64,000 bases of DNA from an uncultured bacterium (lineage in GTDB: Bacteria; Krumholzibacteriota; Krumholzibacteriia; LZORAL124-64-63), in contig CAVSZB010000001.1 in NCBI GenBank assembly GCA_963732385.1, positions 64,001 to 128,000 of the forward strand. The letters run 5' to 3'. The notes under the pieces were generated by a model. That model did no database searches. It was not told the DNA's origin and worked only from the letters and a program-made list of their open reading frames with translations. Of the stretch, positions 48,634 to 57,350 are shown piece after piece. Position 1 is the first letter of the stretch; each line of letters begins with the position of its first letter. The translations under genes and the position numbers were made by a program.

Positions 48634-50541
48634 GTGAGTTATTGGCGTGCGAGAGGCCGCGCAGGGCGGCGTGATCGAGCCAGCTTCGATCGGGCGAGGG
48701 GAGTTGCAGACATCTTGAGGGCCTGCAATAGTTTACGCGCCAAGTCCACATTCCCTGGCCGCCGGCTGTTCGCGGTGGCCGCCCTTGTGCTCGGACTCGC
48801 CGGCCCCGGGACGGCCAGGGCCCTGCTGCACATCGACTTTGAGCAGGCCATCTTTGCGCCGGCCGGTCTGGCGGTGATGGATTTCTGCGTGCTGCGTGAG
48901 GATGGTTTGTACCACATCTTCTATCACGCCATCCCCGAGGAGCTGCTGGGTCCGCCGGCAGTGAAGACCATCTACCACGCCACGTCGCCGGATCTTGTGC
49001 ACTGGGACCAGTGCCTTCCCGCCATCGAGCGCGGGCCGGAGATCTGGGAGGGGCTGGGTGTCTGGGCGCCCGACGTGGTTTGGGACGCGCCGCGCGGACA
49101 ATGGCGGATGTTCTACACGGCGGCCGATTCCCTGTGGGTCCAGCGCCCCTGCGCCGCGTGGTCCGATGATCTCTATTCGTGGACGAAGGTCCCTGCGAAC
49201 CCCTTGTTCCTCCCGGACACGCTGCAGTACTACTGGTCTCCGACATTGGCGTGGAGTTCGTTCCGCGATCCTTTCCTGTTCTTCGCCGACGGCGTCTGGC
49301 AGATGCTCTCCACGGCCGGCCTGCGCGTGGGAGGATATCCCGGCACCAAACAAGGCATCGTGCACCGCGCGGTGTCCACCGACCTGGAAACATGGGCCGA
49401 CGCGGGGCCGTTCTGGGCCCACGACGGGGCGACTCTGGCCTGGCATGATCTCGAGAGCGCGCAGTATCTGGTGCGGGGGGGCTGGCATCACCTGTTCGTG
49501 ACCGAGCAGGATGTCGCCGGCGTCAGCCACATGGTCGCCGACACGGCAGGTGCCTGGACAATCGCGACCCGCACCCGGATCGACTACGGCTACGCGGCCG
49601 AGATCGACGAGTTCGATCCCGGTGTGGACATCTTTTCACGCTATGTCATAAGTCAGCACCTCGATACAGGGAAACTGTTCTATGTCGCGCGCTTCGACAC
49701 GCTGCGCTGGCTCGACGGCGGAAAGGTCCCCCAGGTCTGGAAGCCCCACCCCCTCAACCGGGATTTTGCGAATCTAACCGGACTCGCAACGTATGGGCAG
49801 CCGACCTGGGGCGACAACCCGGTAGAACGCGGCGAACCTTCGAGCGGCCTGGTAGGAAAAGGCTGGTTCGGCAGCCAGGAGTTCTATCAGGGCCCCGGGT
49901 CGGGCCGCGGCTCGCCGGGCTCTCGCCTGGGAGACGCGGTTACAGGAAGCTGTGACAGCCGTCCTTTCGTCATCGAGGGCGACTTCATCAAACTCCGGGT
50001 CGGCGGCGGGTACTATCCCGAGACCTGCTACGTCGCCCTCGTTGCCACCGACCCAGACACGATACTGGCCCGTGAGACCGGCACGGGCGTCGATTTCATG
50101 ACCGAGCGCATCTGGAACGTGCGCCCCTGGCGCGGGCGGTCTGCCTGCATCCGGATCGTCGACGAGGAGGTCGGCCCGTTCGGGCATATCAACGTGGACG
50201 AGATCGAAGAAATTCTCGACCCGGTGACGGACGTCGGGCAGGGCCAGGGGGGGCCGGCCACGGGCCTGACGCTTCACGCGGCCAGCCCCAATCCATTCAA
50301 CGCCAGCACGGCCATCCGCTTCACCCTGCACGAGCCTGGACCGGTCGAAATGGTCGTCTACAACACCCGCGGGCGCGTCGTGCGGCGCCTGCCTCCCCAG
50401 CAATTCGACGCGGGCGATCACGCGATCTCCTGGCGCGGCCAGGACGAGCGCGGGCGGCCGGTGAGCACCGGGGTCTACATCTATCGCTTGCGGGTCGCCT
50501 CCGGCGCCTGGACTGTTGGGCGTCTCACGCTCGTGAAATGA
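48634..50541 (+). CDS. Secreted GH32/43-like beta-propeller glycosidase with C-terminal FlgD-Ig tail (start uncertain)
   Basis: MDF...YHIFY, SPDLVHW, VWAPDV, FRDP, LES; tail PNPFN.ST.IRF...YNTRGR.VR...WRGQD..G.PVSTGVY.YRL...LTLVK. Confidence 0.8.
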   Translation: MSYWRARGRAGRRDRASFDRARGVADILRACNSLRAKSTFPGRRLFAVAALVLGLAGPGTARALLHIDFEQAIFAPAGLAVMDFCVLREDGLYHIFYHAIPEELLGPPAVKTIYHATSPDLVHWDQCLPAIERGPEIWEGLGVWAPDVVWDAPRGQWRMFYTAADSLWVQRPCAAWSDDLYSWTKVPANPLFLPDTLQYYWSPTLAWSSFRDPFLFFADGVWQMLSTAGLRVGGYPGTKQGIVHRAVSTDLETWADAGPFWAHDGATLAWHDLESAQYLVRGGWHHLFVTEQDVAGVSHMVADTAGAWTIATRTRIDYGYAAEIDEFDPGVDIFSRYVISQHLDTGKLFYVARFDTLRWLDGGKVPQVWKPHPLNRDFANLTGLATYGQPTWGDNPVERGEPSSGLVGKGWFGSQEFYQGPGSGRGSPGSRLGDAVTGSCDSRPFVIEGDFIKLRVGGGYYPETCYVALVATDPDTILARETGTGVDFMTERIWNVRPWRGRSACIRIVDEEVGPFGHINVDEIEEILDPVTDVGQGQGGPATGLTLHAASPNPFNASTAIRFTLHEPGPVEMVVYNTRGRVVRRLPPQQFDAGDHAISWRGQDERGRPVSTGVYIYRLRVASGAWTVGRLTLVK

Positions 50542-50796: not shown

Positions 50797-51912
50797 CTAG
50801 TGTTGCTTCGTGGCTGCGACCCACATCGCGGCCCACACGAATCCACTCAGTTCACGGGCCACCGCGACGGCGACCTTGTTGCGATGCTTCGTCTTCTCCA
50901 GGTGATGGAATCGCCTGCCGAGTCGATGCTGGGCCTTCACGGCGATCGCGACCATTTCAGGATCCTGACCCATCCGGCGGCGATCGAGGATCAAGGTCGA
51001 GCCTACCCTGTACTGGTAGTGCCAAGCGGCTTCGACTAGGATCCGTCTTAGGAATGTGTTGCCCGCCTTGGTGATCGAACCACGATGTTGTTGCTCGCCG
51101 CTGGAGTGCTCCTTTGACACCAACCCCGTGTACCCCATCAGCCGGTCCGGGTGACTGAAGCGACGGATGTCTCCGATCTCGGTGACCAACGTCATCGCCG
51201 TCAGGGTCTTGATGCCGCGGAAGCACTGCAGCGCCTCGACGGTCGCCCGCCAGGGCTCGCGACAGGACCACTGCTCGATCTCGGCGTCGAGCGACCGCTG
51301 CTGAGACTCGAGGTACTCCAGGTGGTCGAGGTCGTAGGCCAGGACCGTCTGCAGCGGGCCCGTCATCTCGCGGCGCAACGTGGCCAGCCAGGCGCGATGC
51401 TGCTTCGTCCAATTGCTTTTGGTCCCGGTGAAACGATGTCCGTGGGTAGCCAGCACCCGGACGATCCGATGCTTGCTGCGCACGATCTGACGCTGCAGCG
51501 ACAGTCGGCATCGCACGAGCTGGCGTACCGCCTCTTGCTCCTCATCTGGTATCGTCACCGCCCGCAGATGGCCGCTGCGATACATGCGCGCCAAGCGCAC
51601 GGCATCCAGGCGATCGGTCTTGCGGTGATCGCCCGGGCAGCGGGGGATCAGACTCGGGGCGATCACCTCGCACTGGAACCCATCGTGGTCCAGGGCCCGC
51701 TGCAGGACGTAGCCTGCACCCGAGGCCTCGTAGCATGCCCGCGGGGAGCCCTGCTTGGTCAAGCGGCGGAAGAGCCGGCGAACCGCGTTGAGGTCCCCTG
51801 GCAACCGGACAATCTCCGGGATGTCCTTGTCTCCAAAGAGGATCGCCGCGGTGATGGACTCCTGGTGAACATCCATGCCCACCCAAACGGTCGCTGTGCT
51901 ATCGTGTGTCAT
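50797..51912 (-). CDS. IS110-family DEDD recombinase/transposase
   Basis: VGMDVH, CYEASG, KTDRLDA, GIKTLTA, SSG...GSITKAGN..LR..LVEAAW, AVAREL. Confidence 0.95.
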   Translation of the reverse strand: MTHDSTATVWVGMDVHQESITAAILFGDKDIPEIVRLPGDLNAVRRLFRRLTKQGSPRACYEASGAGYVLQRALDHDGFQCEVIAPSLIPRCPGDHRKTDRLDAVRLARMYRSGHLRAVTIPDEEQEAVRQLVRCRLSLQRQIVRSKHRIVRVLATHGHRFTGTKSNWTKQHRAWLATLRREMTGPLQTVLAYDLDHLEYLESQQRSLDAEIEQWSCREPWRATVEALQCFRGIKTLTAMTLVTEIGDIRRFSHPDRLMGYTGLVSKEHSSGEQQHRGSITKAGNTFLRRILVEAAWHYQYRVGSTLILDRRRMGQDPEMVAIAVKAQHRLGRRFHHLEKTKHRNKVAVAVARELSGFVWAAMWVAATKQH

Positions 51913-52195
51913 GGCTGGGTCCTTTCGTGAGCGGGAGTTTCGGCTCCCTAGTGTCCCTGGTCCGTGCGGACTAACACACGATACCCGAGGGGCCCAGCCG
52001 TTCCATTATGTCTAGCCCTGGGGGATCGTCGCCACAGCCCCATCAGGGGTCTCGGATTGACGATTCCCGCCGCAGGTCGCACATCCCGTCCTTGGCTCCA
52101 CGCCGGCCATCCGCTACGTTTGTCTCCGCCCCCGGCGCTGCCGCTTCCCTTCGCGCCGCGCCGCGCCTGTACCGTCACCATCCAGGAGTATGCGC

Positions 52196-52690
52196 ATGGA
52201 CGCCTGTCCCTGCGGTTCCGACCGCGCCTACGCCGATTGCTGCGAGCCGTGTATCCTCGGCGCCCGCCCCGCCGCCACCGCCGAACAGCTCATGCGCTCA
52301 CGCTACACCGCCTATGTGAAGCACGAGATCCCCTACCTGGTCGCCACCAGTCACCCGGATCACCGGGACGATCAGGACGAGGCGGGGATCCGCGAGTGGT
52401 CCGAGGGCAGCGAGTGGCACGGCCTGGAAATCCTGAACGTGGAGCAGGGCGGACCGGACGACGACGAAGGCGCCGTCGAGTTCGCCGCGGAATACAGCCA
52501 CGACGGCGACCGCACCCGCCACCACGAGCGCGCCACCTTCGCGAAGCGGGACGGCCTCTGGTACCTGGTGAAGGGTGAGCGCGTCAAACTGAAGCCGTTC
52601 GTGCGCGAAGAGGCGAAAACCGGCCGCAATGACCCCTGCCCGTGCGGCAGCGGGAAGAAGTTCAAGAAGTGTTGCGGCGTGGCGGGATGA
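52196..52690 (+). CDS. YchJ-family protein with SEC-C motif
   Basis: CPCGS...[36 protein letters not shown]. Confidence 0.9.
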
Positions 52691-52709
52691 GCCGGCCCGG
52701 GCGCGACGC

Positions 52710-52898
52710 CTAATCCTCCCGCGCCCCGCCTCCCCCGGAGGCGAGCACCCACCCCATGAGCGCGCCGAGCCCGGCGCTCAGGAGCGGGCTCGAGGTGATG
52801 CCTCAGGTGCCGCCCGAGCAGCGGGCGGCCCACGACACCAGCCAGCCGATGCCGGCGCCGAGCAGCGGGGCCGCGAGGGTGATGATCCGCCTGCGCAT
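52710..52898 (-). CDS. DUF6132-like two-TM protein with in-frame TGA (candidate selenocysteine at residue 32)
   Basis: RBS GAAGGAGAGAGG; MRRRIITLAAPLLGAGIGWLVSWAARCSGGT-[TGA 52803-52805]-GITSSPLLSAGLGALMGWVLASGGGGARED-TAG. Confidence 0.72.
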
Positions 52899-53031
52899 TT
52901 CGCCTCTCTCCTTCCTCAGGTCCGACCCAGTATAGCCGCCCTTCCGCCTGGACGCCGCCCGTCCCGGCGGCCATCATTATGGGAGCCCGCGCGCGATCAC
53001 CGTGCGCGCCGCCGCTCTTGAGGAGGTTCCC

Positions 53032-54237
53032 ATGGACAGCCGCCGCACCGCCATCAAGCCCGCCTCGCGTACCGACAACATTTTGTACGCCGTGCGCGAC
53101 ATCGTCATGCTTGCCGACCAGGTCGCGAAGACGGGCAAGGAGATGCTGTACCTGAACATTGGCGACCCCAACAAGTTCGATTTCGTCACGCCGCCGCACA
53201 TGATCGAAGCGGTGCATCGGGCGATGCTGGCGAACGAGTGCGGCTACACGCCTTCTTCAGGGATCAGGGAGGCGCGGGAGGCGATCGAGCGGCGGGCCGC
53301 GAGTCAGGGCATCCGCAACATCCAGGACCTCTTCGTCACCCATGGCGCGAGCGAGGCGATCGAGGTCGCGCTGACCTCGCTGGCCGAGGAGGGCGACAAC
53401 GTCCTCACGCCGGCGCCCGGCTACCCTCTCTATACGGCGGTGTTGTCGAAACTGAAGGTGCGCGAGAATCCGTATTACCTCGACGAGGCGAACGGGTGGC
53501 AGCCCGACCCGGCCGACATCGCGTCCCGGATCGACGACCGCACCCGCGCCATCGTCCTGATCAATCCGAACAACCCCACCGGATCGGTGTGCAGCCGCGA
53601 AACGCTGCTCGGGGTGCTCAAGGTGGCGCGGGAGCGCGGCCTGGTGGTGTTCGCCGACGAGATCTACGACCGGCTGCTCTACGCGGGCGAGCAGCACATC
53701 TCGATCGCCTCGCTCGATTCGGACGCCCCGGTCATCACCTTCAACGGACTGTCGAAATCGTATGTGGCGCCCGGCTGGCGCATCGGCTGGGGCATCGTCA
53801 GCGGCGACAGGGCCGTGCTCGCGCCCTGGATGGAGGCGATGAACAAGATCCTGCGCGCCCGACTCTGCGCGAACGCCCCGATGCAGGCGGCGATCCGGCC
53901 GGCCCTCGAAGGCCCGCAGGATCATCTGCGGGAGGTGCTCGGCAAGCTCGAGCGCCGTGGCGACCTGACCTGTCGCATGCTCAACGCCATTCCCGGCGTC
54001 TCCTGCGTGAAGCCGCGCTCCGCGTTCTACGCCTTCCCGAAAATCGACATCCCGGGCGGCGATCTGCCTTTCGTGCAGGAGCTGCTCAAGGAGACCGGCG
54101 TGGTGGTCGTGCACGGCAGCGGCTTCGGTCAGGTGCCCGGCACGCAGCACTTCCGCGTCGTGTACCTGCCGCCGGAGGATGTGCTGACGAAGGCGTACGA
54201 GAAGATGGGGGCCTTCGTGCGGGCGTACCGGGGCTAG
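53032..54237 (+). CDS. Class I/II PLP-dependent aminotransferase (AlaA-like)
   Basis: LNIGDP; INPNNPTG; ADEIYD; NGLSKSY..PGWRIGW. Confidence 0.9.
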   Translation: MDSRRTAIKPASRTDNILYAVRDIVMLADQVAKTGKEMLYLNIGDPNKFDFVTPPHMIEAVHRAMLANECGYTPSSGIREAREAIERRAASQGIRNIQDLFVTHGASEAIEVALTSLAEEGDNVLTPAPGYPLYTAVLSKLKVRENPYYLDEANGWQPDPADIASRIDDRTRAIVLINPNNPTGSVCSRETLLGVLKVARERGLVVFADEIYDRLLYAGEQHISIASLDSDAPVITFNGLSKSYVAPGWRIGWGIVSGDRAVLAPWMEAMNKILRARLCANAPMQAAIRPALEGPQDHLREVLGKLERRGDLTCRMLNAIPGVSCVKPRSAFYAFPKIDIPGGDLPFVQELLKETGVVVVHGSGFGQVPGTQHFRVVYLPPEDVLTKAYEKMGAFVRAYRG

Positions 54238-55263: not shown

Positions 55264-56175
55264 TTGACTCACGACCGCCCTGAAGGCCGACTCGATCGCG
55301 CGGGGCTGCTCTATCTAGGCATCGTCTACGTTGTCTGGGGCAGCACTTATTTGGCGATCCGGCTCGCGGTGCGCCCGGGCGCCGGCTTTCCCCCCTTCAC
55401 GCTCGGTGCGTTGCGCGTGCTCGTGGCGGCCGGCATCCTGTTCGCGGCGGCGGCGCTGACCCGTCAGCGCCTGTGGCCACGAAAGGCCGAGTTGCCGGTC
55501 CTGATCGGCGGCGGGCTGCTGCTCTGGCCGCTCGCCAACGGGCTGGTCGTGCTGGGCGAGACCCGCGCCGACTCCGGTTTTGCCGCGCTGCTCGTCGGTT
55601 CGATGCCGATCTGGGTGGCGATAATGGAAGCGCACCTCGACCGCCGGCTGCCGACCTTGAGGTTCATGGGGTCGCTGCTGATCGGGTTTGCCGGCGTGGC
55701 GCTGCTCGCCTGGCCGGTGCTGCGTTCTGGCGCGCGGGCCGACGTGCTGGCCGTCGTGGCGCTGCTGGCCGCTCCGATCACCTGGGGCGCCGGATCGCTC
55801 TGGCAGCGGCGGCGGCCGGTGGCGCTGGCGCCGCTGGCGTCGGCGGCGTGGCAGCAGTTCTTCGGCGGGCTCGGGTTCATCGTGGCCGTGCTGGTGCTGC
55901 GCGAACCGCGGCCGGCCCCCACGCCGGCCGCCTGGGGCGCCTGGGCCTACCTGACGCTGTTCGGCTCGGTGATCGCCTTCACTTCCTATGTGCAGACGCT
56001 GCGCCGTCTGCCGATGCGGATCGTCTCCACCTACGCCTACGTCAACCCGGTCGTGGCGGTGGGGCTCGGCTGGGTCGTCCTGCGGGAACAGGTGACCGGG
56101 TGGACGCTCGCCGGCGCCTCGCTGGTGCTGCTCGGTGTGGCGGGGGTGTTCCACGAGCGGGGGCGGCGGACCTGA
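55264..56175 (+). CDS. EamA/DMT-family transporter
   Basis: VYVVWGSTYLAIR; FGSVIAF; YAYVNPVVAV; about ten TMs. Confidence 0.88.
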   Translation: MTHDRPEGRLDRAGLLYLGIVYVVWGSTYLAIRLAVRPGAGFPPFTLGALRVLVAAGILFAAAALTRQRLWPRKAELPVLIGGGLLLWPLANGLVVLGETRADSGFAALLVGSMPIWVAIMEAHLDRRLPTLRFMGSLLIGFAGVALLAWPVLRSGARADVLAVVALLAAPITWGAGSLWQRRRPVALAPLASAAWQQFFGGLGFIVAVLVLREPRPAPTPAAWGAWAYLTLFGSVIAFTSYVQTLRRLPMRIVSTYAYVNPVVAVGLGWVVLREQVTGWTLAGASLVLLGVAGVFHERGRRT

Positions 56176-56354
56176 CCCGCGTCGCCGCCCGGCTTTGGCA
56201 CGACTCTCGCATGGGTCGCGGCGCGCGGCGTTCCCCGGACGGCGCGCCAGGGCGCGCGCGGGCTCGCGCGGCACGATTGGGGACCGACGGGCGGCCCGAT
56301 ACTGTCCGGCAAGACCCCGGAACAGACGTTTCCCGCCCTTCAGGAGGACTGGTT

Positions 56355-57350
56355 ATGTTCCACTCACGCTCATTTTCGGCCGCTCTGGCACTGGCTCTCG
56401 GGCTGTCTTTCGCGATGACGGGCGTCGCGGCTCCGGCGGCGGCCCAGACCGACACCAGTGATCAGGAACTTCAAAATCTGCTCGAGGATGTCGGCATCGA
56501 GTATGCCCAGGGCTATCTCGCACCGCTGATCCAGACGCTCGGCGTGAACCAGAACAGTGGCCTCTACACCACCGCGTCGGTTCCGCGCGGGAAGCTGACC
56601 TTCTCCTTCGGCCTGAAGGCGATGGGCAGCCGCCTCGCGGACGCCGACTCGGCCTTCAGCCGCGTGCTCGACGTCACGCTCGACGAGACCTACGGCGTGA
56701 ATCCGGGCGATCCCGGCTACGGCGAGCAGGGCGTGGTGGAGATGACCGGCCCCACGGTGTTCGGCAACGAAAGCCGCAGGGGCGCAATCCGCGCTTACTA
56801 TCTCGGCGCTCTGGTGGCCGAGGAGGAGGGGATCGAGGGGCTGATCGACACCCACTGGTCGCCGCTCGTCATGCCCGAGGTGTCGGTTGGCGGTATTGCC
56901 GGCATGCGCGTGACGGTGCGCTGGCTGCCCGAGATCGACGCCGGCGACGCCGGCAAGATCAAGCTGTGGGGCTGGGGCCTGCAGTACGGCCTCACCTCGG
57001 CCATGCCCAACCTGCCGGTCGACGTGATGGTCGGCTTCTTCAAGCAGAACCTCGACATTGGCAACGTCATCGAGACCGACGCCACGAGCTGGTTCCTGGC
57101 CGCGAGCAAGAGTTTCAGTGTCCTCACCCTCTACGGCGGCGCCGCGAAGGAGAGTTCCAATTTCAAGGCCCACTACACCTGGAACCGCAGCGACGGCTCC
57201 GAGGTCCCGGTGGCGCTCGAGGTCGAAGGCACGCAGAAGAGCCGCTTCACGCTGGGCGCCTCCCTCGCCATCGGAGTGCGGCTGAACGCCGACGTGAACA
57301 TCGGCAGCGAACTCACAACCTACACGGCGGGGCTCGGCTTCGGGTTCTGA
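56355..57350 (+). CDS. Secreted/outer-membrane beta-barrel-like protein (DUF6588-like)
   Basis: RBS AGGAGG; signal peptide; GYLAPL, PTVFG, VRWLP, WGLQY; ends in GLGFGF. Confidence 0.65.
   Translation: MFHSRSFSAALALALGLSFAMTGVAAPAAAQTDTSDQELQNLLEDVGIEYAQGYLAPLIQTLGVNQNSGLYTTASVPRGKLTFSFGLKAMGSRLADADSAFSRVLDVTLDETYGVNPGDPGYGEQGVVEMTGPTVFGNESRRGAIRAYYLGALVAEEEGIEGLIDTHWSPLVMPEVSVGGIAGMRVTVRWLPEIDAGDAGKIKLWGWGLQYGLTSAMPNLPVDVMVGFFKQNLDIGNVIETDATSWFLAASKSFSVLTLYGGAAKESSNFKAHYTWNRSDGSEVPVALEVEGTQKSRFTLGASLAIGVRLNADVNIGSELTTYTAGLGFGF

Follow-up and report, generated by a model that had tools for sequence, protein, structure and literature searches.

The minus strand of the window, which is the whole stretch of 64,000 nucleotides that was analyzed, most probably carries a gene that is unannotated and monocistronic and encodes a membrane selenoprotein of 62 residues, a selenocysteine (Sec) form of the DUF6132 family (probability roughly 0.88). 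The genome decodes Sec, a conserved UGA falls on the second invariant cysteine of the family, and structured RNA follows this UGA inside the open reading frame.

The Gene, Its Reading Frame and Its Surroundings

The features of the gene and their coordinates are collected in Table 1. The initial annotation had described a hidden reading frame with a ribosome binding site, two hydrophobic stretches, the motif C-S-G-G-T-[TGA]-G-I-T-S-S-P and a TAG stop, 62 amino acids in all. Every one of these elements was found on the minus strand. The product starts with M-R-R-R and a hydrophobic stretch, continues through R-C-S-G-G-T-[TGA]-G-I-T-S-S-P into a second hydrophobic segment and closes with S-G-G-G-G-A-R-E-D before the TAG; the frame has 62 codons when the TGA is read through. 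The Shine-Dalgarno-like AGGAG is located at 52912-52908, 9 nt upstream of the ATG. Under translation table 11 the front half alone is given, as an open reading frame of 31 amino acids (52803..52898). The plus-strand reading of 52710..52898 was discarded, since its translation gives no plausible protein.

Table 1. Features of the selenoprotein gene and of its immediate neighbors, in window coordinates.
Feature	Position	Strand	Basis or remark
Whole selenoprotein CDS, 62 codons with TGA read through	52710..52898	minus	Frame read directly, and architecture of orthologues
Start codon ATG	52898-52896	minus	Read from the sequence
Shine-Dalgarno-like AAGGAGAG	52906..52913	minus	7-9 nt upstream of the ATG
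In-frame TGA, codon 32, proposed Sec codon	52803..52805	minus	Conserved; shares its column with an invariant Cys in the Cys forms
TGC, Cys27, proposed resolving cysteine, five residues ahead of Sec	52818..52820	minus	Conserved in Sec forms, nearly invariant in the joint alignment
Stop codon TAG	52712-52710	minus	Read from the sequence
Helix 1, residues 2-28, hydrophobic, G14-x-x-x-G18	52815..52895	minus	AlphaFold2 model
Helix 2, residues 38-54, hydrophobic, P38 and G45-x-x-x-G49	52737..52787	minus	AlphaFold2 model
H1, long imperfect hairpin, apical loop GGCU at 52771-52768, candidate SECIS	52747..52789	minus	MFE fold; positions 17-59 after the U of UGA
H2, 6-bp stem (GCCUCC/GGAGGC), GGG triloop, covers codons 53-57	52728..52742	minus	Positions 64-78 after the U of UGA
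Inverted repeat of the initial annotation, CGAGCCCG...CGGGCTCG (arm also given as CGGGCUCG)	52766..52792	minus	Alternative fold overlapping H1
Convergent YchJ/SEC-C gene	52190-52690	plus	Own stop is a TGA at 52688-52690
Divergent class I/II aminotransferase gene	53002-54237	plus	

The gene is flanked by two plus-strand genes, and no partner gene adjoins it on the minus strand. A promoter and terminator scan at the gene found no element, and Rfam had no family matching 52600-53000 at E<=1. Two metatranscriptome libraries yielded contigs that span the gene (X19, 52725-52993; X20, 52701-52902), which is no proof of transcription.

Just past the YchJ gene, about 0.8 kb from the selenoprotein gene, an IS110-family transposase (DEDD_Tnp_IS110 and Transposase_20) is encoded on the minus strand at 50797-51912. 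It is absent at the equivalent place of a congener (L023), where a XhoI-type restriction-modification pair is found instead. Further plus-strand genes of the window encode a GH32-like protein with a C-terminal FlgD-Ig domain (48634-50541) and a DUF6588 protein (55473-57350).

Homology to DUF6132 and the Sec/Cys Pair

The assignment to DUF6132, as well as the placement of the TGA on the second cysteine of the C-x-x-G-x-C motif, had been proposed in the initial annotation, and both were borne out by profile searches and alignment. With U read as C, the window protein matched the DUF6132 profile PF19628 over profile positions 5-55 of 60 with an E-value of 1.7e-4 and 21.6 bits, slightly under the gathering threshold of 23.2 bits. 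Matches to PF19628 were obtained for 13 of 25 Sec forms at E<=0.01 and, at E<=0.001, for 49 of the 67 Sec and Cys forms that were aligned. The Sec forms stand at the margin of the PF19628 model as a divergent subfamily.

A profile built from the alignment of 25 Sec forms (profile A1) was searched against 1.84 billion representative proteins and gave 987 matches at E<=1e-3, 32 of them at E<=1e-10 (best E 2.8e-14). A cysteine stands at the TGA column in all 47 relatives read, which were taken from the best 150 of the 987; these proteins of 58-99 amino acids carry the motif G-C-x-x-G-x-C-x-I-T-S-x-P. PF19628 is present in 74-97% of the members of the Atlas clusters nearest to the best A1 match. 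When 20 Sec forms and the 47 Cys forms were aligned jointly, the TGA column was invariant as Cys or Sec and Cys27 nearly invariant, while G14, G18, P38 and G45 were invariant and G49 nearly so. The window protein shares with the family two helices and the loop C-x-x-G-x-C-x-[ILV]-T-S-x-P, with the second C as U.

Members of DUF6132 were detected in 89 of 301 sampled Bacteroidota genomes. In the 30 best of these loci cysteine occupies both positions without exception (30/30), and the stop codons are the genes' own terminators. Searches that used the single read-through protein returned only one locus, of the Cys form, from genome contigs; no relative of near-equal length was found at E<=0.001 in a collection of 5.8 billion proteins, and no family of NCBIfam release 20 matched the window protein at E<=10.

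The Cys-form DUF6132 proteins resemble the Sec forms in being small (56-100 amino acids), in their two hydrophobic helices with G-x-x-x-G and in the loop C-x-x-G-x-C-x-I-T-S-x-P. They differ in that the second cysteine is encoded by TGA in the Sec forms, most of which also have the motif glycine at C+2 (C-x-G-x-x-U). The residue after Sec is G, S, N, R, H or A, whereas P or A follows in most Cys forms. A conserved S-G-G tail, coincident with the hairpin H2 described below, is found in the Sec forms and is absent from the Cys forms, and the rhodanese and thioredoxin neighbors typical of the Cys forms are missing from the genomic context of the Sec forms.

Sec Decoding in the Genome and in the Phylum

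The genes selA (443.7 bits), selB (316.7 bits) and selD (340.3 bits), together with a tRNA-Sec with anticodon TCA (66.7 bits), were all found in the genome of the window above their curated cut-offs. Among the 58 genomes that carry the selenoprotein gene, selA was found in 56, the two misses being genomes of 83% and 88% completeness. Since 200 of the phylum's 208 genomes have selA, including all 125 of high quality, this phyletic profile is consistent with Sec insertion but does not discriminate. The phylum is small, mostly uncultured and of high GC content, and its use of Sec appears to be universal.

Two classic selenoprotein genes of the same genome carry SECIS elements. The selD gene (contig C3:319568-320491 of genome G000, minus strand, locus L010) has its own in-frame TGA within S-S-G-U-A-A-K, followed 12 nt past the UGA by an 8-bp stem with a GGA triloop. 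Additionally, a screen of the genome for in-frame TGAs with coding-like flanks, which returned 98 candidates, found a Sec peroxiredoxin (prx) with the motif F-T-F-V-U-P-T-E, whose TGA is located at about 1448240 on the plus strand of contig C7; its textbook SECIS is a 7-bp stem with a GGUC loop, the stem lying 10 nt past the UGA.

Conservation of the In-Frame TGA

When 61 relatives were searched in all six frames for the read-through protein, 27 matches were obtained, 25 of which contain exactly one in-frame TGA; the two TGA-less matches are weak (E 2e-3 and 4e-3) and their translations are unlike the family. Profile A1 was then searched over 208 genomes of the phylum. The matches came from 58 genomes, all of one taxonomic family (57 of its 90 genomes besides the window's own), and from none of the 117 genomes of the other eight families. 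Exactly one in-frame TGA was present in 59 of the 60 matches, distributed over 58 genomes and 20 genera, and the remaining match is weak and partial (E 6e-4). The TGA is therefore neither unique to this assembly nor an error.

Pooling and removal of duplicates, with a spurious motif hit (L045) left out and a motif variant (L025) added, left 59 distinct Sec-form genes. The TGA column is identical in all of them, and 58 have a cysteine five residues upstream. The exception, L035 (genome G011), has a serine in place of Cys27 and a cysteine four residues past Sec (U-x-x-x-C), and lacks both the S-G-G tail and H2. Coding conservation extends to both sides of the UGA, with identity to the window product going down to 37-55% outside the genus. 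A start codon is located 31-33 codons (37 in two) ahead of the TGA in 24 of 25 loci, the other locus being cut by a contig end, and a GGAG-like motif precedes the start in most orthologues. One genome holds a second copy of the gene (L098, G173:C7:8725-9453), possibly a duplicate in decay, which keeps the TGA and is wholly divergent in sequence from about residue 47 onwards.

RNA Structure After the UGA

The SECIS of E. coli fdhF is the prototype of the bacterial element. In the accessible text of a recent review, the bacterial consensus is given as a small apical loop, located 16-37 nt from the UGA, with a G among the first two loop positions (PMC13188914). Every Sec-form sequence folds a long hairpin, H1, at about positions 17 to 59. 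Its apical loop begins between positions 31 and 42 in 51 of the 53 relatives and lies at a median of 32 nt from the UGA. When the 66 nt from the TGA were compared with synonymous recodings of the 21 codons that follow it under local codon usage, 24 of 24 sequences fell below the mean (mean z -2.68; p<=0.05 in 19 of 24). With pooled codon usage the z value was -1.75 over 57 sequences, 22 of them at p<=0.05; a locus cut by a contig end (L041) and the diverged second copy (L098) were left out of this test. The same test gave z +0.23 for the 66 nt upstream (3/57) and z -0.15 for random windows of neighboring ORFs (7/60), and the Cys-form genes showed no stability excess (z -0.30, 3/30).

The pairing of H1 in a fixed register was 72.0% vs 68.5% in controls, and a slide of +3 gave an equal covariation score. 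RNAalifold predicted no pairs and no consensus structure on the codon-register alignment; run by subgroup, it found no structure for group A or group B, and group C consists of a single sequence type. A G was found in the first two loop positions in 35 of 53 sequences, against a rough chance estimate of about 31. H1 resembles the bacterial SECIS in its place inside the ORF directly past the UGA, in the distance of its loop and, in the window, in the loop GGCU. It differs in that its upper stem begins about 25 nt past the UGA, compared with 10-12 nt in prx and selD, in being far longer than the elements of those two genes, and in a loop sequence that is not conserved.

An inverted repeat starting 11 nt after the TGA had been put forward as a possible SECIS in the initial annotation. 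The repeat does exist, but it starts 10 nt past the TGA and is not conserved, so that the proposal was wrong in detail. With one mismatch in congener L023 and more in congener L024, it was rejected as a functional element.

The best-conserved hairpin, H2, agrees with the consensus in its GGN loop and lies about 66 nt from the UGA, beyond the 16-37 nt range given in the accessible text of PMC13188914. Of its cells 94.3% are paired, where shuffles (0 of 500) reach 82.4% and slid controls 57-73%, and compensatory changes occur at three of the six pairs, one of which is CG in 25 sequences, GC in 11, AU in 7 and UA in 4. At least five of the six pairs are kept in 50 of 53 relatives, and the GGN loop and the codon TCC for Ser54 in 52 of 53 each. 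Codons 53 and 57 covary as CTC/GAG, ACC/GGT, GCC/GGC and CTT/AAG (L/E, T/G, A/G and L/K), and the RNA pairing of H2 constrains the protein here. In one genus the TGA is kept and H2 is not intact: L035 is without it, and L087 (G129) has a shifted hairpin in its place. The core motif of H2 occurs 33 times in the genome, close to the approximately 35 estimated by chance, and H2 is therefore not a repeated element.

SelB and Sec-tRNA(Sec) would be recruited by this downstream RNA. On account of its loop distance, its near-universal presence and its retention where H2 is lost, H1 is provisionally favored as the likelier SelB site, with H2 as an accessory or alternative element that would have shaped codons 53-57. 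A bipartite Sec-decoding signal is a speculative and rather unlikely arrangement, in which H2, the covarying hairpin with the GGN loop some 60 nt downstream, would be the conserved SelB contact, the folding of H1 would bring H2 to the ribosome, and the pairing of H2 would dictate the C-terminal x-S-G-G-x motif.

Alternative Readings of the UGA

The UGA might be read through as Cys, Trp or another standard residue, by near-cognate suppression or by a Cys-tRNA(Sec), instead of as Sec. Such read-through would sit well with the ambiguity of the SECIS assignment, in which the covariation of H1 is weak and the distance of H2 non-canonical. It is improbable, however, in a genome with a complete Sec machinery and two classic selenoprotein genes, for a codon that falls on a redox cysteine, as is usual in Sec/Cys exchange. 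The excess of RNA structure past the UGA, found in the Sec forms only, argues in the same direction. Moreover, TGC would be the simpler codon for cysteine, yet the TGA was kept in all but one of the phylum-sample matches.

True termination at the TGA would leave the 31-residue, single-helix peptide of table 11, and the conservation downstream would belong to a 3' RNA element or to a separate unit. TGA is an ordinary stop in the genome of the window, since the neighboring YchJ/SEC-C gene and most orthologues of the selenoprotein gene end in it, and a conserved RNA structure does exist downstream. Against this, the frame after the TGA is open for at least 20 codons in all 53 distinct relatives, where the +1 frame is closed in 48, an openness far beyond chance, and all 53 keep the 30 downstream codons in frame. 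The TGA is not followed by any start codon, and the second half of the product aligns residue for residue with that of full-length Cys forms, including invariant P38 and G45 and the nearly invariant G49. Termination would not be expected to put a stop exactly on the invariant cysteine column in 59 matches, and this reading is very improbable.

A decaying DUF6132 gene with a nonsense change from TGC to TGA, or an assembly error, to which the divergence of L098 after about residue 47 and the IS110 transposase some 0.8 kb away might point, is refuted for practical purposes by the conservation of the TGA in 59 matches from 58 genomes and 20 genera at identities down to about 37%, and related-strain contigs from four public runs cover the gene with no difference at 52803-52805 among the differences listed.

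Protein and Likely Role

For the 62-residue product, AlphaFold2 run on the 67-row alignment gave two helices with residue 32 in the loop between them, at low confidence (mean pLDDT 63.6). Because the N-terminal MRRR is basic and the C-terminal tail charged, both ends are predicted to be cytoplasmic, which would place the C-x4-U loop R-C27-S-G-G-T-U32-G-I-T-S-S-P at the outer face of the membrane. There Cys27 and Sec32 could form a reversible selenenylsulfide, with Sec as the attacking and Cys27 as the resolving residue.

A membrane-anchored selenenylsulfide/selenol-thiol relay (for thiol, disulfide or persulfide redox) in thiol or sulfur-compound chemistry is proposed, at about even odds, because rhodanese, thioredoxin, TlpA-like, OsmC and sulfur-transporter genes surround the Cys forms. 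In 27 of 30 Bacteroidota Cys-form loci, a gene for a rhodanese, a thioredoxin-fold protein, a TlpA/AhpC-type redoxin, OsmC, DUF302, YeeE or TauE lies within 1.5 kb. The gene order at one Bacteroidia locus is TauE, MBL-rhodanese, rhodanese, DUF6132, Crp and YgaP-like. Recurring cassettes were observed among the Bacteroidota loci (L100-L129): (a) rhodanese(s), thioredoxin and a TPMT-like methyltransferase; (b) OsmC, DUF302 and rhodanese; and (c) a methyltransferase, a TlpA-like redoxin and a Tll0287-like protein.

The functional proposal draws on these distant Cys forms, since the contexts of the Sec forms vary and no conserved redox neighbor was found in them. YchJ and aminotransferase genes accompany the Sec form in the window's genus and in one other genus, S9 peptidases in several, and multihaem cytochromes in the C-[RQT]-[GS]-G-G-U subclade. 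In five loci of that subclade (L031, L032, L034, L038 and L040), a family-less ORF of 130-170 amino acids and a gene for a multihaem (cytochrome c7-like) protein lie downstream of the Sec gene in the same orientation, and the three genes may form an operon.

Transmembrane thiol-disulfide carriers of the CcdA/DsbD type have six to eight helices. The likeness to them lies in a membrane-embedded redox cysteine pair and, for the Cys forms, in thioredoxin and TlpA-like neighbors, and is one of analogy only: DUF6132 has two helices, and no sequence relation was found in Pfam.

Discussion

DUF6132 was found as a selenoprotein family in no selenoprotein paper and in no NCBIfam model, although supplementary files and some cited lists may include it. 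The name 'DUF6132' occurred in one, unrelated, paper of the literature searched. A review of prokaryotic selenoproteomes from 2026 has a table of 119 families and subfamilies, and its accessible text contains neither 'PF19628' nor 'CxxxxU' nor 'transmembrane', and 'membrane' twice, for other proteins (PMC13188914). A DUF6132 selenoprotein is likewise not described in the accessible parts of the deep-Sep paper (PMC12013277) or of Haft's 2022 preprint (10.1101/2022.07.06.499078).

A further comparison is with another selenoprotein family, to which DUF6132 is unrelated: the window protein gave no PF02411 match at E<=10, the spacing is C-x4-U vs C-x2-U, and no mercury-resistance context is present. 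PF02411 (MerT) is a family of small membrane proteins. A putative mercuric transport protein of this family, with the motif C/SxxU, stands in the table of the review as far as it is accessible, and the likeness is that Sec is paired with a nearby Cys or Ser (PMC13188914).

The two conserved hairpins provide a test of the distance between SECIS and UGA that SECIS models should allow. If the bipartite signal were true, it would mean a SECIS architecture beyond the current bacterial consensus and an RNA structure that writes protein sequence.

On the selenoprotein reading, the bacterial selenoproteins would gain a widespread family of very small membrane proteins. Since the gene is invisible to gene callers, Sec-using lineages would carry an unannotated redox component. 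Sec at the position of the second cysteine would mark the reactive residue, and may serve as an entry to what DUF6132 does in the metabolism of sulfur and thiols.
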